In this document: positions 1 to 10,803 of the stretch, piece by piece
Position numbering within the stretch: position 1 is the first letter of the stretch
How the letters are laid out: each line of letters starts with the position of its first letter
IMG/VR virus record: IMGVR_UViG_3300012155_000036
Location: 1 to 11,024 of that record
Source of the DNA: a virus
Taxonomy: Duplodnaviria > Heunggongvirae > Uroviricota > Caudoviricetes
Length of the DNA stretch: 11,024 nt
Direction: 5' to 3' (one strand)
Notes under the pieces: generated by a model
Database searches by the model: none
Told to the model about the DNA's origin: nothing
The model's input: the letters and a program-made list of their open reading frames with translations, nothing else
Made by a program: the position numbers and the translations under genes

Positions 1-185
1 GTCTGCGGCTGAATCTCCTGATAGTAAACAATGCCGCCGAACTGCCCGTGCACGTTCACCTCAAAGTAACGGCAATCAGGTTTGTAGTCGTATCCATCAC
101 CGTTGTTGCTTCCGGCAATAATGTCAGGGTGATTTCCTACTGCTTCGATCAGGTCGATGTTTCGCGTTGGTTTGAATGTAATCAT
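1..185 (-). CDS. N-terminal fragment (61 codons) of the gene following the tail needle, running off the left edge; by position the P22 gene-14 slot (internal virion / ejection-associated protein)
   Basis: ATG at 185..183 overlaps the needle stop codon (TGATG on the minus strand); frame is open to base 3. My translation: [61 protein letters not shown]. Not in the ORF track because it is truncated. Function is inferred from synteny only. Confidence 0.5.
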   Translation of the reverse strand, partial: MITFKPTRNIDLIEAVGNHPDIIAGSNNGDGYDYKPDCRYFEVNVHGQFGGIVYYQEIQPQ

Positions 186-886
186 CAGTCAATCAGCCCA
201 TGTAATCTAAGTGCCGTTTCAAGTGCCAGAATACGCTGCCGCGCCTGCTGCAAACCTGTAGCGAGGGATGCAACTTCGGATTGTGTGTACGTAGTGCCGA
301 CAGTGTATGACTGGTTAGCGTTGAATGAGCCAAGAAGTGGCGTACCTGTGGCTGCAGTCCATCCGGTATTTCTTGCTCCAACAACCTGAATTCCATCAAC
401 TGAATATGATGTTTTTACATCCAGCGGTGACGCAAGAGACTGCGATTCGGTTACGGTTTTCGATACGTAATCACTCTTAATGTCAGATACATCGCTTTCT
501 ACGCCATCCAGTCTTTTGTCAACAGTGACCAGATGCGCCTGAATATCGATAACCTCATCCAGCAAGTAATCAACATCGCTACGCAGTACGACTATCTTCC
601 CTTCGGCAGTTGTTAACCTGACCTCAAGGAGATTTATCGCTTTTGTGTTTGCGGTGATTCTTGTGTCGTGATCAGCCAGTTCGACATCCTGTTCATCGTT
701 TTTCACCTGAGCATCGTAAGCGCCCTGACCAGCCTGATTTGCCTTCCCGGCAATTGCGCCGACATCAGCCCCCTGATTAATGACATACAACAGGTAAGAC
801 TGGCTGAAGATATTGCGTGGAAGGATTGATGTATCGAGCCGCGTCGCCTGCACAATAACAGGGGTGTTGAGATTCGAATCAGCCAT
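185..886 (-). CDS. Tail needle protein, P22 gp26-like (233 aa)
   Basis: 233 aa, the length I recall for P22 gp26. N-terminus [18 protein letters not shown]...SYLLYVI and C-terminus ...[18 protein letters not shown]...[22 protein letters not shown] resemble what I remember of that family. ATG at 886..884 shares one base with the upstream stop (TAATG). It lies immediately after the gp10-like gene, as in P22. Confidence 0.88.
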
Positions 887-2304
887 TACTCAATCCTTAT
901 CTGGCAACCAGACAGGGTGACAGGTGACTTCGTGATAACGCGCAATTTGAAACCAATGTTTTTCCTGATGCGCCCTACTTTCTTCCACAAAACGCGTTTG
1001 TCGTAAACGAACGGTTCATTCTGCTCAATCATCTGCTCACGCCCGTAATTGATGCCGTCAGTGGTTGCAGAGAGAAAAAGGCGGTCAGCGTACTGCGCAA
1101 CGCCAGTTGAAGATTCAACTTCAAGGTCGAACACTCTGGCATTATCTGCTTTGAACAACGGAGTAAACAGCAGGTGTTCCTGTTGCTTGTCGTACTGGCT
1201 GCTGATATCGAACTGCAATTTCCCGGTCACGGATTCCAGCTTATCGCCGCACGTTATCTGATTGCCTTCGTAAATGAAGTCGATAGCGCGGTACACATCG
1301 TCATACAGGCCTGTTTTCAGTACACACCATTGCGGACCATTGGCGCTTGAAGATGCGTCGTACACGAGAACATGGCGCGGAAGGTGGATAATCAGCAACT
1401 CATGCGCATCAAATCGCAGAGACTCCATCACACCATCAGCCAGTTCATCAGCAGTGTAGGAGCGGAGAATTTTCTCAATGCTCGCGCTGGCGATTGGTGA
1501 CACCTGACCGGATCCGATGATGTAAACAGACGGAGCACCTGTTGCCGGATTGCTGATGAACGCATAAGAATCAGCGAATGGCGTTTTGCAGTAAGTCCCG
1601 GCGATGCCTTTTTGCACCATCAGTGATGGCTGTGCGACATACAAAGCTGCACCAACGGTGGTTGCACCAGTCAGGGAGAAATATTCAATCGTCGATGAAC
1701 CAAAGCAGACGATGAAGTCTCGCCATGTGCCGATGCCGATGATGCCGTCCGGCTGCGATTCTGCGCGATATTGTGCGCTGTAGCGGTCAGGATGCGATTC
1801 GTCTTCAAGATCAGTGATGAACCATGAATCAGTGCCGTCTTTTGACCACGCATAACGCCCACGCAAGCGCGTAATGTCGCGAACTGAACCTAACTCATAC
1901 TGCGTGAATCCGCTGTCTGTAGGCCAGTTTGAGACTGTTTTAACCGTGCCATCATAACGATACTCGACCAGTTGACCATTAACGCCTACAGCCTGAGATG
2001 TCCGACCATGTGCCATTGATACGCGACCACTTCCGGCGACGTCACCGACTTCGCTTTCGCCTTTGTAGAGCTTGCCGCCACACACACGATAAACAGCATT
2101 CTGAGCCATGTTGTACTCGACGCCTCGCGATACTCCGTTCACATCAGAACGTTTGGCAATGCCCGGGAATGAGCGAAGATATCCGCTGCTGTTGAGTATT
2201 TCTTTGGGTGTAGCCAGCATATTCACTGGCAGATAGTCGATATAGTCGGCGTTTCGAAAGTCTTTGCCGACACCTTTCATGAGCGGAAGTTGCTGAATCG
2301 GCAT
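886..2304 (-). CDS. Head-completion / tail-hub protein, P22 gp10-like (472 aa)
   Basis: 472 aa, the same length I recall for P22 gp10, in the expected position between the gp4-like and needle genes. ATG at 2304..2302 is preceded by GAGGTG with a 6 nt spacer. Confidence 0.85.
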
Positions 2305-2313
2305 TTATTCACC

Positions 2314-2775
2314 TCACGTACTCGGATCATCTTTCTCGATGTAAAACCGATTCCACGTAAACGCGCTTTTGTTACCACTACCGCGAGGCATGTCATTTCG
2401 CCGCTCAAGTGGTGGTATTTTGGTTAAAGCGATGCAGATTGTCTGATATGCACTGTCAGCAGCGGTCAGGAGAGCATCCGACGGCTGAATGACGTTATCC
2501 ATGCACACTTGCACAGCGAGTTTCAAAGCGACGCCATCATTTGCCCATGCAGGGATACCTGAATCATCGTCCGGTAACGGCATGATGCCGTTTTCTGTAT
2601 CAGCAAACTGATACCCAAGCTCGATACCTTTAGCCTGCCATGCTGCCATCATGTCTTCGAGGTCATTAATGGCATCTTCAATTGCCTGAGGGTCAGCATC
2701 TGTCAACGTGGCATTGGAATACAGCCCAGCTTTTCGTAAAGCCTTTAGAACGAGATCACCCTTCGTTTTCGCCAT
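2314..2775 (-). CDS. Head-completion / tail adaptor protein, P22 gp4-like (153 aa)
   Basis: N-terminus MAKTKGDLVLKALRKAGLYSNATLTD resembles my recollection of P22 gp4 (MQIKTKGDLVRAALRKLG...). Position is between the capsid and gp10-like genes. It ends 9 nt before the gp10-like start. Confidence 0.8.
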   Translation of the reverse strand: MAKTKGDLVLKALRKAGLYSNATLTDADPQAIEDAINDLEDMMAAWQAKGIELGYQFADTENGIMPLPDDDSGIPAWANDGVALKLAVQVCMDNVIQPSDALLTAADSAYQTICIALTKIPPLERRNDMPRGSGNKSAFTWNRFYIEKDDPST

Positions 2776-2944
2776 CTTCTTCCGCCTTAGCCAATTTTTG
2801 CTTCGTTGCGGTTTCTTCAGGAGTTTTTACCCAACCTTTTTTCAGGTGAGATTTAACCTCTTCGTCATCAACAATGATGTAATCGACAGCAAACTGACCA
2901 CAGATGATCATGTTGCCAGGCTTATAGAGCATTGTTCGTGCCAT
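2756..2944 (-). CDS. Small hypothetical protein (62 aa) between capsid and gp4-like genes, with an acidic C-terminal tail (AKAEEDGENEG)
   Basis: ATG at 2944..2942 is preceded by GGGAGA with a 5 nt spacer, directly after the terminator hairpin. It overlaps the gp4-like start by 20 nt in another frame. The ORF track extends it to a TTG at 2983, which would overlap the hairpin and capsid stop; I prefer the ATG start. Confidence 0.45.
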   Translation of the reverse strand: MARTMLYKPGNMIICGQFAVDYIIVDDEEVKSHLKKGWVKTPEETATKQKLAKAEEDGENEG

Positions 2945-2950
2945 TGTATT

Positions 2951-2985
2951 CTCCCAATAAAAATGGGGCCGAAGCCCCACCAAAA
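2951..2985 (-). terminator. Putative intrinsic terminator / attenuator immediately 3' of the major capsid gene
   Basis: Minus-strand RNA reads UAA-UUUUGG-UGGGGC-UUCG-GCCCCA-UUUUUAUU. A perfect 6 bp GC-rich stem (2964..2969 pairing with 2974..2979) closes a UUCG tetraloop and is followed by a U5AUU tract. Downstream genes must still be expressed, so any termination would be partial. Confidence 0.5.
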
Positions 2986-4239
2986 TTACTGCCCGGCAAT
3001 AACGATGCCCGTATATTCAGGAACAAGTACAGAGCAACCGTAAAGAGTGGTGAAACGAGCAGTGGTTACGCCTTTGATGTGGTCGAAGGAGTAAGACATG
3101 ATCAGCGTAGCGCCCTGCTCGGTGGTTGCTGTCATTACCTGTGGACCCTGACCAGTCGGGAACGCCAGTTTGCCGTACATCAGCTCAACAGAACCATCAG
3201 CCCAGAACAGGTTAGCCGGTGCGGCATTTTTGTTGAGAATGGTGATTGCTGCACCATTTGCCGCGTTAGCATCAACGTTTGCATATGGACGGCTGGCGAC
3301 ATCTGCGTTGTCAGGCGGCAGAATTTTCGGGGAGATAGTCACTGTCGTTCCGCTTACTGCCAGAACGCGGAATACCTGCGGCTGCCCGGTGGTATCTTTG
3401 GTAATCTGGTGTACAGAATTCACGCCTGCAATGGTGAACGCATCGCCAACCTGCAAACCTTCAGCAGATACCGTAATGGTCCCCTGTCGGTTATCCACTG
3501 GCATATCGTTAGCATCTTTCGCTTCAACCTTGTGCGCAGGTGCTGCTGCCAGCGTAATGGAAGTTGCTGTACCCTTCGGAACACGACCGGAAATATCGGT
3601 CTTGTAGCTATCGAAGGACGCAACCGGAGGGATCTGCGCTTTTTCGTATGCTGTCAGGGTTGCGCCCTGAGCATAGGCACGGTGACCAAGCTCGCCAGCA
3701 AGGTCTTTGTAGTTGAAGGGGTTCCAGAAAGAGCGGCGGTTGATACCCTGTGGTACACCAATCGCCGTCATGGTGGCATCAATACCTGCCGCACAGTTCC
3801 ACAAATCACGGCCCTGTGAACCAGTGGTTGAGTCAGCCATTGTGATCACGTTAGTAGCACGCTGCGTGACCATGGAAATCAGGTCAGAGTCAATCTGTGC
3901 AGCAAGGCGCATACCTGCGGCGCGACCAGCTTCAGTTTTATGTTCCGGGTCACGCATTTCACGCGCATCCAGAGTGTACAGAATGTTTTTCGGCTCCTTG
4001 AACACAGAAGGAACAAGGCGCTGAACCAGTGCTGTTGGCGTTTTGCCGCTGAGGTCTAGGCCTTCCTCAATGTTCATGTGGTAATGCTGCGGACGATACA
4101 GAACATCACCTGCTCGCTGCATTGCTGTATCACCGGGACGGAATTTTTTAGCGTTACGGGAAACTACGCAGGCGGCCTCAAAGCCTTCAACGTAGTTTTC
4201 GAACATGATTTCAAGGTCTTTTGCTAATTGGTTAGCCAT
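2986..4239 (-). CDS. Major capsid (coat) protein, P22/Sf6 gp5 family (417 aa)
   Basis: About 420 aa ORF directly after the scaffold gene, the arrangement in P22-like phages. ATG at 4239..4237 is preceded by GGAG with an 8 nt spacer. Followed by the terminator-like hairpin. Confidence 0.9.
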   Translation of the reverse strand: MANQLAKDLEIMFENYVEGFEAACVVSRNAKKFRPGDTAMQRAGDVLYRPQHYHMNIEEGLDLSGKTPTALVQRLVPSVFKEPKNILYTLDAREMRDPEHKTEAGRAAGMRLAAQIDSDLISMVTQRATNVITMADSTTGSQGRDLWNCAAGIDATMTAIGVPQGINRRSFWNPFNYKDLAGELGHRAYAQGATLTAYEKAQIPPVASFDSYKTDISGRVPKGTATSITLAAAPAHKVEAKDANDMPVDNRQGTITVSAEGLQVGDAFTIAGVNSVHQITKDTTGQPQVFRVLAVSGTTVTISPKILPPDNADVASRPYANVDANAANGAAITILNKNAAPANLFWADGSVELMYGKLAFPTGQGPQVMTATTEQGATLIMSYSFDHIKGVTTARFTTLYGCSVLVPEYTGIVIAGQ

Positions 4240-4257: not shown

Positions 4258-5151
4258 TTATTTTTTTGCCTTTTTAGCGGCGAAATACGGCGTCCAGTCA
4301 CCAGTTTCCAGCGCCTTGGCTTTCAGTTTGTCGAGGTTGTTGATTACTGCGCCGTTGCTCCCCTTAACTGTCGGGGTTGTGGCTGCCGTGGTTTTTGCTT
4401 TTGGCATGATTCTGGCCTTCGATTCGATACGTTCCAGCAGACGACCAATTGCTACGGGGTTGGTAGCTTCTGCCAGTTGCTTGCGCAGTTCAGCGTTGCG
4501 ACCGAGTGCCAGAACAACGATTTCCGGCTTCTCTGACTCAAACAAGATCGCGTTTTGTGTCTCGATGGGGATTTCCTCGAGTACGGCCTGCTCAGCTTCC
4601 TGATAGCCAGGAACTTTGAGAGCCTTAACACGTTGCTGATATTTGGATAATCGCTCTTGATAGGCAGCCTGAAGCTCCTGCTCCTTCTGCTTGCGAGCCA
4701 TCTCCTGTTGCTGGTACTTGCCGTTATCCTCTGCCCACTTAGCCATGCGTTGCTGGTAGATTTCTTCATCGAAACCGATGTCCTCATCATCCAGTTTTGG
4801 CATTCGCGGTGGTTGAGTGATTACCGGCTGCTGCTCGACGGGTTTCTGAGACTGACGCATCAGCTCTTTCAGCTCACGGTCTTTCTCTTTAATCGTCTTG
4901 CGCAGGTGTTTTACCAGTCCATGCTCTGCGCCATCTTCGCTGGTTGGCGAATCCAGCTTTTCGTCACCAAAGTAGAATTCCTGTTCTGATTCGTCGTCAT
5001 CAGTTTCAGTAGCTTCCTCTACATCATTGCCGGATGACTCACTGCCATCTTCTGTTTCGACTTCTTCAGCCAGTTCGACATCATCAGGAATCTGCTCTGA
5101 CGCGTCGGTTTCGATTTCAACTTCTGGTGTGTTTTCTGCCATCTGGTCCAT
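4258..5151 (-). CDS. Scaffolding protein (297 aa)
   Basis: Sits between portal and capsid genes; about 300 aa, as for P22 gp8. The N-terminal ~80 residues are extremely acidic, the middle is charged and helical-looking (QQQEMARKQKEQELQAAYQERLSKYQQRVKALK), and the C-terminus is basic (KLKAKALETGDWTPYFAAKKAKK), consistent with a coat-binding end. Confidence 0.82.
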   Translation of the reverse strand: MDQMAENTPEVEIETDASEQIPDDVELAEEVETEDGSESSGNDVEEATETDDDESEQEFYFGDEKLDSPTSEDGAEHGLVKHLRKTIKEKDRELKELMRQSQKPVEQQPVITQPPRMPKLDDEDIGFDEEIYQQRMAKWAEDNGKYQQQEMARKQKEQELQAAYQERLSKYQQRVKALKVPGYQEAEQAVLEEIPIETQNAILFESEKPEIVVLALGRNAELRKQLAEATNPVAIGRLLERIESKARIMPKAKTTAATTPTVKGSNGAVINNLDKLKAKALETGDWTPYFAAKKAKK

Positions 5152-5241
5152 TTGTTACCCCTGTTTACTCGATGTTCAGCCCATCGGAAGGCAATAGGGT
5201 GCCAGGCCTCATAAAGACAGCCATTGCACGTTATGGGTTAA

Positions 5242-7440
5242 TTACTGCTGTGGTTGTTGCTGAGTTGATTTTTGCAGGATGCTGCTGATGTCCATGCGCT
5301 GCGCATGGCCCTGTGCCTGACTTTTCAGGACAAGCTCTGCATCAGCACGGGCATTGTCTCCTTGCTGTTGCTGGAACTGTCCGAGCAGTTTCAGAGCCTC
5401 GCGGATATCAGATTTCTGCTGGCTATCAGCAGATGCGAGGATTTTCACAACATTTGCCGCTGCAACCTGAGCATCAGTCTGTGCCTGGAATGCTTTAACC
5501 TGAATGGCTGCCTGCTCGTTCTGCGCTTTCTGCAATTCAGCCTGACCAGCAAGAAGCTGACCTTGCGCAGCAACCATAGCCGGATCTGGCTGACTGGCCT
5601 GTTGTTGTTTCGCCTGCTCAACCATTTGCTGTTCTTCAGGCGTTCTCGGCTTGATAACGCCAGACAGAAGCAACTGATTGCGGTTGTATTCTTTCAGGTC
5701 GTCCATCCCTTCGCCGTCCATATTGTCGAGAATCATCGACGATACAAGGTCATGCTTCGGCGTTCCTGGCGGGATAAGTGCCAGCATGGAAAGTAACGAC
5801 TTAACCGTTGCATCACGGCGAGTAGCGAACGACTGACCGACATCGACAGTCACTTCATAGTTGCCCTGCGAAAGGTCATTAAGCGCGATAACCTGCCCTG
5901 TCTGACGGTCAATCACTTCACCAGTCATCAGCGCCACGTCATCGCTGCCGTCCTCATTAACGATACGCATCGGCGTATCACTGCCATAGACCTCACGCGC
6001 CATAGAAAGCCACACAACGCCAGCGCGGCGCATGGATTTAGCCATGTTGTCCATGTAGATATAGGACTGCGTGTCCATCCGGTTAAAAATGCTATCAACG
6101 GTATCGGTGGCGACGTTGCTCGGCATGTTCTCAAGCTGCGACGCACCTGTAATTTGCTGAATAGCCGTTCCGGTGTACTGCAATAGCCCGGCAAGAGCAG
6201 GAGGCATTTGTGTCGGAGGTGTCCAGCCAGCAACCTGAGCCTCTGAAATGACCGTTCCGTTTTTGTCCTTCTTGCTGGTCATGGGAAGAACTGCAGGTCT
6301 TTTCTTATTCCTCTCTGCCCAGTGATTCATTAATGGACCGGGAATGAAATCAACATCCACGATAGGAATGCCATCACCGCCAGCCTGAGTAGCGTTATCT
6401 GCAATCATGGAAACCATCAGGTTCTCAAGACGCTGTGCATCCATCGCTTTTGCTGCGTGGCCTTCGATTCGCTCCTGATTATCAACAAATGAACGACGCC
6501 CATATACCGGGATGAGAGGAATATGTTCACCCGGAATACGCTTCGGTTCTTCCAGCCATTCAGCGCCAGACAGAAGACCGCAATAAACGCGGCGTTTCTT
6601 CACTGTCCGCTCACCAATCAGTTCGAATGCGCCATCGGTTAGCTCGTCGACAATATCTTTGATTTGCTCTTCATCATAGATTGCTGTTTCTCCGCTGACA
6701 GGATTGCGCCACGCCGTGAGCTTCACCTTCTCTATGCGAACTTCGTAGTAGCGTCCAACATAGATGGCATCGGGCGTTGACCAGTCATACTGAGTACCAG
6801 TGTCATCACGAGAAAGGCTTGCCGCAATGGAATCAGGGTATTCAGCCTCGAACGCTTTAGGCGTCATGGAGAACATTTCCATAGCCCACATAGCATCAGA
6901 GCGGTCATATTGCTTGCTGTCCTGATCGAAGAAGACGCATGTCGCTGGGTCGTAAACAGGAAGAAGGCTGATGCGTCGCTGCTCGTTACTCGGATCCATT
7001 TCATCCTCGTAATCAGCACACATGCGGAAACAACCGAATCCGCCCGTTACAGCATCATCAAATGCGTTATCACACGCTTCGCCACCGGATGTTTCCTGAT
7101 AGTCAGCGCGGAATTTGCCGTTCATCTTTTCGGCTAACGCTTCCGATGCCTTATCGTCCTTCGGTCTGAATTTAACGCTGATGCGATTCTGTCGATACTC
7201 GCCAATGATGCGATCACATTCACGGGAAATCTTATTCAGTTCAAAGCGCGGGTAATGCTCAAACCTGCCTTCATCAAATGAGTAACCAGCGTTTGTGCTG
7301 CCTTCCCACTGTGCGCCGGATACCCGGACGAAACGTTGAGCCTCAATAATCTGCTCACGCATATCCTGCGTTGCTGACCAGGCATTATCAAAGTTGCACA
7401 GCACCTTGCGATGCCAGTCAGTCATCTTTTTTTCTGCCAT
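5242..7440 (-). CDS. Portal protein, P22 gp1 / Sf6 gp3 family (732 aa)
   Basis: 732 aa ORF immediately downstream of the large terminase (TGA-T-ATG junction). The long Gln/Ala-rich helical C-terminus (...PEEQQMVEQAKQQQ...AQNEQAAIQVKAFQAQ...QQQPQQ) resembles the C-terminal barrel region I recall in the P22 portal. Confidence 0.92.
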   Translation of the reverse strand: MAEKKMTDWHRKVLCNFDNAWSATQDMREQIIEAQRFVRVSGAQWEGSTNAGYSFDEGRFEHYPRFELNKISRECDRIIGEYRQNRISVKFRPKDDKASEALAEKMNGKFRADYQETSGGEACDNAFDDAVTGGFGCFRMCADYEDEMDPSNEQRRISLLPVYDPATCVFFDQDSKQYDRSDAMWAMEMFSMTPKAFEAEYPDSIAASLSRDDTGTQYDWSTPDAIYVGRYYEVRIEKVKLTAWRNPVSGETAIYDEEQIKDIVDELTDGAFELIGERTVKKRRVYCGLLSGAEWLEEPKRIPGEHIPLIPVYGRRSFVDNQERIEGHAAKAMDAQRLENLMVSMIADNATQAGGDGIPIVDVDFIPGPLMNHWAERNKKRPAVLPMTSKKDKNGTVISEAQVAGWTPPTQMPPALAGLLQYTGTAIQQITGASQLENMPSNVATDTVDSIFNRMDTQSYIYMDNMAKSMRRAGVVWLSMAREVYGSDTPMRIVNEDGSDDVALMTGEVIDRQTGQVIALNDLSQGNYEVTVDVGQSFATRRDATVKSLLSMLALIPPGTPKHDLVSSMILDNMDGEGMDDLKEYNRNQLLLSGVIKPRTPEEQQMVEQAKQQQASQPDPAMVAAQGQLLAGQAELQKAQNEQAAIQVKAFQAQTDAQVAAANVVKILASADSQQKSDIREALKLLGQFQQQQGDNARADAELVLKSQAQGHAQRMDISSILQKSTQQQPQQ

Positions 7441-7441
7441 A

Positions 7442-8857
7442 TCAACCTACACCACAAGGAATTGAGTAACTGGAATAGTCGGGTTGCGCAGCCGACTCCG
7501 GGCAATGCATACACATCATCAGCGCATCAGCCAGGTTAGGAGATGGAATACCGAGCTTCTGCTTCATTTCGACCTTAGTCATAAGCTCCAGCTTCCCGTT
7601 ATTATTGAATTTGCGCTGAATCTGCGTCAGTTCTGCAAACAGCTTCTCCAGCATCTTCTCGCCTATCGCTTCTTTGTCGAAACTCAGCATGTCGTCTGGG
7701 TCTGCATACTCACCGTGAACAACCGCACGATATGTCAGATACAGCCTGTCAGCCAGCGCGTAATAGAATTGCGCTCGCTTATTGCGGAATACATCGCCAA
7801 TAGTGCGAACGTTGTCGCCCTGCACGACTTCATCAGCCCATGCTCCGGCCTGGTAAGGCGCATCTTCATCGAATGGCGATTCGCTACCCTTGAACATCGT
7901 GGCGGTGATTTTCTTGCCGGAGAACGCTTCCGTTGTCTGTCTGCGTAGCCCGGCACCAACACCATCACCATCCCACAGGTAATGGTCAGCGCCGTCTTCA
8001 ATCGCCAGCGAAGTAGCCCAGTCAGCACCCTCGTTGATGTCCATCAGCAGACCTTCGGCAATGCGCTTAACTACCGAACCGTGACGCGATGCATAACCTT
8101 TAGCATCCGGCCCTGTATCTGACGGGTCATGTGCAGAAACAACAGCGCCTTTCGCTTTCCATCCGAGTTTCTTGTGCGCATCGGTTGCGGCTTCAAGCCA
8201 TTCACGTTTGATGATTGCCATATCACTTGCGCTTACCGGCTCACCAAGCCAGATGTGACGATACAGTGTCGGATTTCTGCGTTTGCACTCTTCCATCTCC
8301 AGACGGAGAACTTCAGGAAAGTGCGGGTTGTCGGTGTAGTTCACCGTCAACAGACAAATATCATCAGGAGGATTTACGACGAATCGCTGATAGGTATCGT
8401 CGAGGATGTTCTTCGGGTTAAAGCTCACCCATATTTCAGAGAACGGCTTACGGATGGTTGGAATCAGGATATCCCATGATTCCTTCGTTACCGCTTCCGC
8501 TTCTTCCACCCAGCAGATATCAATACCTTCGAGCGATTTAATCTTCGTCGGGTTGTTTTTAATGCCGTAGAACATGAATTCAGCATTCGTTCCGAGATGA
8601 CGAATCATTGAACGCTGAATTTCAAACTCAGCCGAATACCCTTCACGCTCGATGGTATCTTCAAGCAACCGGATTACCGAATCGCTGATACTGTTTTGCA
8701 GTTCACGAGCGCAGAGAATACGCACTGGCTGCCGACGCGCCGCTTCAACAAGCAGTCTCGCAATTGCCCATGACTTACCGCTACCTCGACCGCCTTTGGC
8801 GACTTTGTAGCGATGCGCCTCAATGAACGGTTCAAAGATAGGATTAATCGAGGTCAT
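7442..8857 (-). CDS. Terminase large subunit (471 aa)
   Basis: Walker A motif KGGRGSGKS near the N-terminus and a Walker B-like IDICWVEEAE. The N-terminus MTSINPIFEPFIEAHRYKVAKGGRGSGKSWAIARLL matches what I recall of Sf6 gp2. ATGA overlap with the small terminase stop. Confidence 0.93.
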   Translation of the reverse strand: MTSINPIFEPFIEAHRYKVAKGGRGSGKSWAIARLLVEAARRQPVRILCARELQNSISDSVIRLLEDTIEREGYSAEFEIQRSMIRHLGTNAEFMFYGIKNNPTKIKSLEGIDICWVEEAEAVTKESWDILIPTIRKPFSEIWVSFNPKNILDDTYQRFVVNPPDDICLLTVNYTDNPHFPEVLRLEMEECKRRNPTLYRHIWLGEPVSASDMAIIKREWLEAATDAHKKLGWKAKGAVVSAHDPSDTGPDAKGYASRHGSVVKRIAEGLLMDINEGADWATSLAIEDGADHYLWDGDGVGAGLRRQTTEAFSGKKITATMFKGSESPFDEDAPYQAGAWADEVVQGDNVRTIGDVFRNKRAQFYYALADRLYLTYRAVVHGEYADPDDMLSFDKEAIGEKMLEKLFAELTQIQRKFNNNGKLELMTKVEMKQKLGIPSPNLADALMMCMHCPESAAQPDYSSYSIPCGVG

Positions 8858-9279
8858 TTTCCGAATAGAGTACTCATCGGTGATGTTTCAATCTGTATTG
8901 CGCCGCCGTCTTTGCCGACAAGCTCGTTAGTTACCTTGTCGCCATACTTACGGGGATTCATTCGTGCCAGCGCCCATTTGCGGGTATCAACGCGAAGTCT
9001 TGCCTTTGCCACCTCAGCAGCATCTGGAATCGCAGTGTCAGCAATTTCGAATATCTCTTCGAAAATAGAATCAGCTCGTGCCTCAGTTGCCTTCGCGTAC
9101 TTGTCTCTAAATTCTTCATGCTCTGACAGCCAGCGAAATACAGTAGCCTTTGCTGGCATGCCTGGGCGCTTGCAAACCTTAACCAGACTTTCCCCGGAGG
9201 CAAGCAGCGCACAGATATCATCAGCCACCTCCGGCAGGTAATCCGAAGGGCGACCGACATTCTTTTTCTCAGTCGCCAT
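8854..9279 (-). CDS. Terminase small subunit (141 aa), Sf6 gp1-like
   Basis: 141 aa ORF directly upstream of the large terminase and coupled to it. Translation MATEKKNVGRPSDYLPEVADDICALL...KVCKRPGMPAKATVFRWL suggests an N-terminal helix-turn-helix DNA-binding domain and resembles my recollection of Sf6 gp1. Confidence 0.82.
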   Translation of the reverse strand: MATEKKNVGRPSDYLPEVADDICALLASGESLVKVCKRPGMPAKATVFRWLSEHEEFRDKYAKATEARADSIFEEIFEIADTAIPDAAEVAKARLRVDTRKWALARMNPRKYGDKVTNELVGKDGGAIQIETSPMSTLFGK

Positions 9280-10085: not shown

Positions 10086-10272
10086 AATTATGACCCTGTG
10101 GAGTGGTTGCTTGATTAGGATGTCTTTCCATCAGTCCGCCACCACAAAGAATCTTTTTTGCCATAAGGCTGGAGGTTCATCTTTCAGTGGCTGCCAGTGT
10201 TATTTCCCCACTTACTGGCTTGGGTTGTTTCGTGGTACTGCCGTAATGTACAGACTGGATTAACCTGAGAAA

Positions 10273-10803
10273 TCACACCATTCCGGGCAAATACATTTGC
10301 ACTTCATTTGCCGCTCTCTCACGTGCAACATGAAGCAATCTTTTTCGCCCACCAACGCCCCACTTAGCCATTTGGCTTGCGCACTGGCTTATCGCTTTGG
10401 TTTCAGTATTGATGATGTGATCGATTCTATTCAGACGTGACATTGCGCCAACGCCGAGACGGACAACCGTTTTGAAAACTTCATAAACTTCGATTTCAAA
10501 TTCCGGCTTAATCCATGCTGCATATCTGATTGCCAGAAGTTCAACACCCCACACACCTGGTTCTGCACCACCTTTGATTATTTTAAGTGGTTGAATTTGT
10601 TCCAAAGTGCTTTTTTGCACTTTGGCCTCCAGTGCTTTTATGAAGCGTTTTATCTGCGCGCTACGCAAAAACTGGCTTGGGCGCTGTTGCTCTGTAGCCT
10701 CTCCATTTGCAACTGCTGCTGCATGGAGATCGTTTAAGTTGTAGCGTCCATCCTCATCAACACGAACGGACACACCATTGACAATAACTGTTGGGTACTT
10801 CAT
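10273..10803 (-). CDS. KilA-N domain-like DNA-binding protein (176 aa)
   Basis: N-terminal region ...VNGVSVRVDEDGRYNLNDLHAAAVANGEATEQQRPSQFLRSAQIKRFIKALE fits the KilA-N pattern as I remember it (DG-Y-N-DLH-A-G ... P-FLR). ATG at 10803. About 220 nt of apparently non-coding sequence lies upstream. Confidence 0.6.
   Translation of the reverse strand: MKYPTVIVNGVSVRVDEDGRYNLNDLHAAAVANGEATEQQRPSQFLRSAQIKRFIKALEAKVQKSTLEQIQPLKIIKGGAEPGVWGVELLAIRYAAWIKPEFEIEVYEVFKTVVRLGVGAMSRLNRIDHIINTETKAISQCASQMAKWGVGGRKRLLHVARERAANEVQMYLPGMV

Follow-up and report, generated by a model that had tools for sequence, protein, structure and literature searches.

Do the hairpins that lie directly past phage coat genes terminate transcription, or do they mainly stabilise the coat mRNA, with Q antitermination expected and the stop codon only 4-6 nt off? 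The locus that raises this question lies in the window (the whole stretch of 11,024 nucleotides analysed here), for which the original prediction had proposed a terminator or attenuator that stops transcription in part directly after the capsid gene. We found that the whole window belongs to a P22-like podovirus and holds its late (virion) operon, which is read from the minus strand and is of the type found in CUS-3/Kapi1-type prophages. It is 98% identical to phages Kapi1, JEP4, Huey and Sf101 and 94.7% identical to CUS-3, and prophage copies of the locus are present in 428 of 5,426 complete E. coli genomes. The virion genes, in the order of transcription, are as follows.

8854-9279, minus strand: small terminase
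7442-8857, minus strand: large terminase
5242-7440, minus strand: portal
4258-5151, minus strand: scaffold
2986..4239, minus strand: major capsid (coat) gene, 417 aa, stop TAA at 2988-2986 (PF11651 P22_CoatProtein, E = 3.9e-77)
2756..2944, minus strand: 62-aa ORF, ATG at 2944-2942 (phrog_1175, E = 1.5e-27)
2314..2775, minus strand: gp4-like head-completion/tail accessory gene (PF11650, E = 7e-41)
886-2304, minus strand: gp10-like gene
185-886, minus strand: gp26-like needle gene

The coat protein is 98-99% identical to the Kapi1, Huey and Sf101 coats and 94.5% identical to CUS-3-type coats. The order coat, 62-aa ORF, gp4, gp10, gp26 is the same as in P22 and Sf6, and the 62-aa ORF is the positional counterpart of P22 orf69 and Sf6 gene 6, with 22-37% identity to its positional counterparts. 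From the coat stop to the ATG of the 62-aa ORF there is a 41-nt gap, and RefSeq starts the ORF at the same ATG. Hence, the hairpin described below is truly intergenic.

Annotations of the small post-coat gene differ in their start. The longest-ORF call (TTG start, 75 aa, 2756-2983, minus strand) crosses both the hairpin and the U-run, and the Kapi1 record uses this TTG start (Kapi1_051, L099:10318-10545), whereas RefSeq and CUS-3 use the ATG at 2944. The 75-aa call is probably too long, and the 62-aa ORF, whose ATG is served by a GGGAG Shine-Dalgarno (SD) sequence, fits much better.

Relative to P22, the region from 886 to 4239 (minus strand) contains a sharp mosaic boundary, with protein identities of 29% for the coat, 27% for the small ORF, 41% for the gp4-like protein against P22 gp4 and 93% for gp10. 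By this comparison, the divergent head module ends at the gp4/gp10 junction, away from the hairpin. We rejected the hairpin as a marker of the mosaic boundary, since identity to P22 jumps to 93% only at gp10.

The gap between the coat gene and the small ORF is filled by four elements.

2985-2980, minus strand: spacer UUUUGG between the coat stop and the stem, inside the mRNA stretch covered by a ribosome on the stop codon
2979-2964, minus strand: core hairpin UGGGGC-UUCG-GCCCCA, in which 6 bp close a C(UUCG)G tetraloop (5' arm 2979-2974, loop 2973-2970, 3' arm 2969-2964)
2963-2956, minus strand: U-tract UUUUUAUU, 7/8 U, immediately 3' of the stem
2955-2951, minus strand: SD sequence GGGAG, followed by a 6-nt spacer AAUACA before the ATG at 2944

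The anatomy had been described as a perfect 6-bp GC-rich stem with a UUCG tetraloop and the U-tract UUUUUAUU after the coat stop, and this is exact to the base on the minus strand; the next ribosome-binding site had been placed right after the U-tract, where GGGAG indeed abuts it. All six core pairs are Watson-Crick (five G-C and one U-A), and one or two outer G-U pairs can lengthen the stem to 2981-2962 (7-8 bp). The core folds with -11.2 kcal/mol and the G-U-extended hairpin with -13.3 kcal/mol. Judged by its sequence, the structure bears every hallmark of an intrinsic (Rho-independent) terminator: a G+C-rich stem in the range of ~5-14 bp with a short loop (here 6 bp and UUCG) and a U-run (7/8 U) immediately 3' of the stem. 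A terminator scan placed it among the two best terminator-like sites of the transcribed strand, and its terminator discriminant is positive. The U-run is present on the transcribed strand only; the plus-strand copy of the hairpin lacks one, so the element is unidirectional. We rejected an antisense role, since that plus-strand copy has no U-run and the promoter-like site on the plus strand (2883-2911) is no more than chance would give (8 such sites found versus 11.7 expected). The Rfam gathering search of the window returned no family.

A promoter scan of the minus strand between 2962 and 2314 found no promoter-like site. Hence, the genes 3' of the hairpin must be reached by read-through, as had been proposed, and the gp4-like gene is the first functionally assigned virion-completion gene (gp4/gp10/gp26) that depends on it.

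The folding energy of the 66-nt context is unexceptional (z = -1.5; 17 of 200 shuffles fold as well). After this weak plain z-score, we used a motif-specific shuffle test, defining the motif as at least six Watson-Crick pairs, at least five of them G-C, with at least 7/8 T immediately after the stem. The transcribed strand contains this motif once, and none of 300 dinucleotide shuffles of the 11-kb strand contains it.

Among close relatives, we found the core GTGGGGCTTCGGCCCCAT unchanged in 79 of 80 near-identical IMG/VR contigs. In the bases immediately 5' of the core these near-identical relatives vary (TTTAGG, TTTTAG, TTTGGG, TTTTTG), and the bases that form the outer G-U pairs vary among close relatives too. 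A GC hairpin directly past the coat stop, in most cases with a T-run, is shared by the divergent relatives (P22, Proteus V3, the Sf6-type phage Dewey, Vibrio phages, Murrayvirus, Sortsnevirus, a Stutzerimonas phage and a freshwater virus); the layout is kept and the sequence is changed. Stop codon, a few nucleotides, GC tetraloop hairpin, U-run, SD sequence and small-ORF ATG follow one another in P22, Sf6, Proteus V3, Dewey and the lambda E-FI junction alike. The distance from stop to stem is 4-6 nt in the window, and its median is 4-5 nt for the clades of the window, P22 and Sf6.

Across nine divergent coat proteins, no stretch was conserved enough for a profile-based search for the locus, and the survey set was enlarged by three single-protein scans; the coat stop was located in 267 loci that reduce to 98 distinct downstream sequences. 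We found a hairpin (at least 6 bp, at least four G-C) no more than 80 nt past the coat stop in 97 of the 98 sequences versus 119 of 728 (16%) other same-strand ORF ends, and a hairpin with at least 5/8 T in 74 of the 98 versus 11 of the 728; relatedness among the 98 sequences and the crude calling of control ORFs make p-values for these comparisons indicative only, overstating independence. RSK1 is a true exception: its coat stop is overlapped by the following ORF, and the 'hairpin' reported by the script sits 46 nt inside that ORF. The post-coat sequences comprise 74 distinct stem-loops, and their loops are dominated by extra-stable types, C(UUCG)G in 41/98 and G(GAAA)C in 11/98.

RNAalifold applied to 32 alignable freshwater relatives returned a helix of 8 bp just past the conserved C-terminus of the coat. 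In this alignment 97.3% of the cells are paired, and compensatory changes are present in seven of the eight pairs. We counted 61 double-change cells, compared with 16.6 ± 4.1 in shuffles, and 0 of 500 shuffles reached 61; slid registers of the alignment are just 45-70% paired. Positional conservation of the hairpin holds across lineages with 26-35% coat identity, and the flanks are not conserved among the clades; the hairpin alone is.

These results bear on whether the element is a chance inverted repeat, or a DNA-level signal without RNA function. The 66-nt fold energy, which is not unusual for the composition, would fit a chance repeat, but the motif is absent from the 300 shuffles and a chance repeat would not keep its position with compensatory changes at such low coat identity; for a DNA-level signal, the U-run on the transcribed strand alone points instead to RNA. 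We regard this reading as refuted by conservation and covariation and give it next to no credence.

The two parts of the element are conserved to different degrees. The T-run (at least 5/8) is kept in every enteric clade examined and in 35 of 57 freshwater sequences, and all 23 sequences that failed the first terminator filter have a strong hairpin, most of them falling short of the T-run alone. About one-third of the freshwater relatives thus keep a strong hairpin without a U-run; hence, the hairpin itself is the conserved part. What is universal across post-coat sites is the hairpin; the U-run varies. Freshwater relatives that lack a U-run may simply have hosts with different terminators.

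The original prediction had known of no documented element at this position; we found that curated GenBank records of three phages annotate one there, the P22 stem_loop, the Sf6 't coat' and the HK97 putative terminator. On comparison of these records, the post-coat hairpin is the CUS-3/Kapi1-type counterpart of the known 't coat' stem-loop, an ordinary element already annotated in relatives. Like 't coat', it occupies a short gap directly 3' of the coat gene and ahead of a small ORF and head-completion genes, and its structure is conserved across lineages with divergent coat genes; the stem core GGGGC/GCCCC is common to the window, P22 and Sf6, whose coats are merely 26-29% identical. The known status rests on the GenBank feature annotations of P22, Sf6 and HK97 and not on paper text: a literature full-text search, whose reach does not include the P22, Sf6 and HK97 genome papers, found no statement on the P22-type post-coat stem-loop, the literature covered gave no RNA data at this site for any P22-like phage, and the transcript papers on BTP1 and Sf6 do not resolve the coat/small-ORF junction.

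The closest of the annotated counterparts are in the P22-like Lederbergvirus group. In Sf6, 't coat' (AF547987, regulatory/terminator 6147-6173) lies directly past the coat gene, with a small ORF and a gp4 homologue after it, and it shares the GGGGC/GCCCC core, a 4-nt loop, the U-run and a start ~4 nt past the stop; its loop is UUAC rather than UUCG, and the Sf6-type coat is another coat type, ~26% identical (measured on Dewey and APC_JM3.2). What the Sf6 record gives is likewise predicted, in the words 'likely to be a transcription terminator'. In P22, the stem_loop at 6102-6119 (BK000583) lies past gene 5 and before orf69 and gene 4, 5 nt from the stop, with the stem AGGGGC/GCCCCT and the U-rich tail UUUCUUUAU; its loop is UGCG, and the coat is 29% identical. 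The P22 record claims no function and describes the feature as 'putative; similar in location to stem-loops in phage HK97 and phage lambda'.

HK97 and lambda have the same arrangement in Q-dependent late operons, with a GC hairpin 2-6 nt past the major capsid stop and the next SD sequence close by. HK97 (AF069529) carries a putative terminator at 5192-5213 right past the major head gene 5, and the lambda E-FI stem-loop (ATGGCCC-UUCG-GGGCCAU), which starts 2 nt past the E stop, has the UUCG loop of the window. Both phages differ from the window in being siphoviruses with capsid gene families unrelated to its coat and in having weaker U-runs (lambda UUGUUUCUCU, HK97 UUUU); the lambda discriminant is near or below zero, and in HK97 the major tail gene is also bracketed by such sites.

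Two more distant phages share the design. In T7, the terminator Tphi lies immediately past capsid gene 10, and the essential genes 11 and 12 are expressed only via read-through; Tphi is the sole T7 terminator for T7's own polymerase (PMC5592923). It differs in acting on T7 RNA polymerase and not on the host enzyme, with no Q-type antitermination, and it is shown experimentally, whereas the element of the window is predicted from sequence. In SPP1, a predicted terminator at 8775-8815 past the major capsid gene 13 consists of a hairpin and U-run from the capsid stop, followed by a small ORF and connector genes (PMC6316719); SPP1 is an unrelated phage of a Gram-positive host, and its terminator is a prediction only.

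The post-coat hairpin therefore carries little weight as a discovery, being the positional counterpart of a feature annotated in GenBank (P22, Sf6 't coat', HK97) with the same design as T7 Tphi. Its value is modest: the element is unannotated in the nearest records (CUS-3, Kapi1, Sf101, epsilon34 and RefSeq prophages), some gene calls run through the hairpin (Kapi1_051, with its TTG start), and its universality is now quantified, at 97 of 98 lineages with covariation.

The parallel with T7 suggests an intrinsically leaky Rho-independent terminator, whose fixed, substantial stop fraction would by itself set the ratio of coat to downstream transcripts, as Tphi does past T7 gene 10. The canonical anatomy, with 7/8 U and a positive discriminant score, speaks for such a terminator, as do the U-run kept in all enteric clades despite differing sequences and the precedents of T7, where genes 11 and 12 are reached by read-through only (PMC5592923), and SPP1, where the predicted terminator begins at the capsid gene stop (PMC6316719). 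In addition, the lytic Murrayvirus/Sortsnevirus relatives have a conserved GCTTATAC after the terminator and a ~90-nt gap, which is compatible with termination followed by re-initiation. However, Tphi works on another enzyme, T7 RNA polymerase, and about one-third of the freshwater relatives have the hairpin without a U-run.

The polymerase itself also weighs against a fixed stop fraction. Lambdoid late operons need Q antitermination (PMC2629481; PMC7547250). The Q gene and the late promoter lie outside the window; in the 98%-identical Kapi1, both are present upstream of the same operon, and by this comparison we expect the operon to be transcribed by Q-modified polymerase of the lambdoid late type, which would resist terminators.

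A second obstacle is the ribosome. A ribosome protects ~10 nt 3' of the A site, and in E. coli shifting the stop codon's position from 28 bp to 5 bp upstream of the tR2 terminator lowers termination from ~90% to <10% (PMC4824070). At the 4-6 nt that separate stem and stop codon in the window, ribosomes in E. coli nearly abolish termination. Hence, Q antitermination together with the close stop codon predicts a low natural termination efficiency. We therefore consider it unlikely that a leaky terminator alone sets the transcript ratio. The claim of partial termination holds in so far as read-through is required; the weak terminator that it implied is not needed, since Q-modified polymerase and a ribosome on the stop codon would suffice.

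If Q-modified polymerase should ignore the terminator, the hairpin might instead be a safety insulator, silent in lytic growth, that halts only Q-less polymerases from spurious or internal prophage promoters and so keeps the downstream virion genes off in lysogens. Four transcription start sites have been mapped inside the capsid gene cluster of the P22-like prophage BTP1 (PMC7067206), and the locus resides as a prophage in the 428 E. coli genomes noted above, both of which fit such a role. Insulation would nevertheless leave the specificity for the coat end unexplained, as the hairpin is found there in 97 of 98 lineages with lytic phages included; occlusion by ribosomes would weaken the insulation of any translated transcript, and hairpins without U-runs cannot insulate. 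We judge an insulator to be distinctly improbable.

Of the two labels originally offered for the element, terminator or attenuator, the anatomy fits the first. A classical attenuator would be a signal-responsive switch between terminator and antiterminator folds, and its case consists of the terminator-like hairpin alone and of the closeness of the stop codon, which loosely couples the hairpin to coat translation. We found no competing fold of comparable strength in the 66-nt context, whose minimum free energy structure is the hairpin with weak flank pairs (z = -1.5), nor a leader peptide, a ligand-binding fold or other sensor, or an Rfam family. The flanks, moreover, are not conserved among clades, and the position is intercistronic rather than that of a leader. 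Hence, attenuation is very improbable here.

From the observed structure, position, conservation with covariation and operon context, we infer read-through, a frequency of termination, a stabilising role and an effect on protein ratio, and combine them in a mixed model that we hold to be probable, though by no wide measure: most polymerases would read through, a minority would terminate and the hairpin would shield 3' ends, so that the coat message is favoured. The coat gene is the last one in the late operon whose product is required in very large amounts, and the hairpin stands directly behind it. During lytic growth most polymerases would pass the hairpin with the Q antiterminator aboard, and the ribosome finishing the coat gene would cover the 5' arm of the hairpin and promote read-through, while a minority of polymerases would terminate at it. 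On the read-through transcripts, the UUCG hairpin would fold once the ribosome has gone, and the folded hairpin would block 3'-to-5' exonucleases after cleavage downstream. By either route, RNA 3' ends would accumulate just past the coat gene, and the coat-containing message would outnumber or outlast the gp4/gp10/gp26 message, whose products are needed in few copies per virion. The P22 virion contains ~415 coat copies versus 12 of gp4, 6 of gp10 and 3 of gp26, and enrichment of coat RNA over downstream RNA would fit this stoichiometry.

We favour the mixed model because the hairpin is conserved even without the U-run and because terminator strength is linked to transcript abundance in E. coli: in one report, strong terminator variants went with ~2.2-fold higher transcript abundance than weak ones, which its authors credit to stability of the upstream mRNA (PMC11696848). 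The post-coat element has the features of an mRNA stabiliser, being a stable stem-loop at the 3' end of a cistron that is needed in excess and being kept independently of the U-run. The U-run in every enteric clade argues that real termination matters there, so that a view of the hairpin as a pure stabiliser is incomplete. Selection for enhanced translation can also favour U-rich sequence immediately 5' of an SD sequence.

A broader form of the mixed model is tentative and, in our estimate, somewhat doubtful. It holds that the conserved role is not termination but translation-gated 3'-end formation, in which the ribosome finishing the coat gene would mask the hairpin and so let polymerase read on, and the UUCG hairpin would later serve mainly as an exonuclease barrier that prolongs the coat message. 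The enteric U-run would then be secondary, providing residual termination or acting as a translation enhancer, and the role would be general across P22-like, lambda-like and other tailed phages.

Several other sites were seen in the window and its relatives. The only other transcribed-strand site with a good hairpin and at least 6/8 T is at 10975-10956 (minus strand), where AGCCTCGC-AUUC-GCGGGGCU is followed by UCUUUAU. Comparison with Kapi1 places this second terminator-like site downstream of the lysis cassette, and a Rha-like regulator ORF (10273-10803, phrog_129) follows ~150 nt downstream of the site. The otherwise tightly packed operon also has two unusually long intercistronic gaps on the minus strand, at 5152-5241 (90 nt, portal/scaffold) and 10086-10272 (187 nt, orf176/orf126), and neither contains a terminator-like site. 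In the Sf6-type phage Dewey, an HNH endonuclease gene lies on the opposite strand between scaffold and coat (L092:1176-1697), an insert that is absent from the other P22-like loci examined.

The motif GCTTATAC(T/C) stands directly after the post-coat T-run in four lytic relatives, Lumpael, KMB41, Sortsne and IME279 (L081:2807, L082:2813, L084:2813 and L085:2813), and might restart expression past the terminator, as a promoter-like or some other signal. Its longer form GGCTTATAC occurs once in the window, versus a chance expectation of 0.04 per window, at 9664-9656 (minus strand) in the gap from orf126 to orf84, just past a hairpin at 9696-9671.
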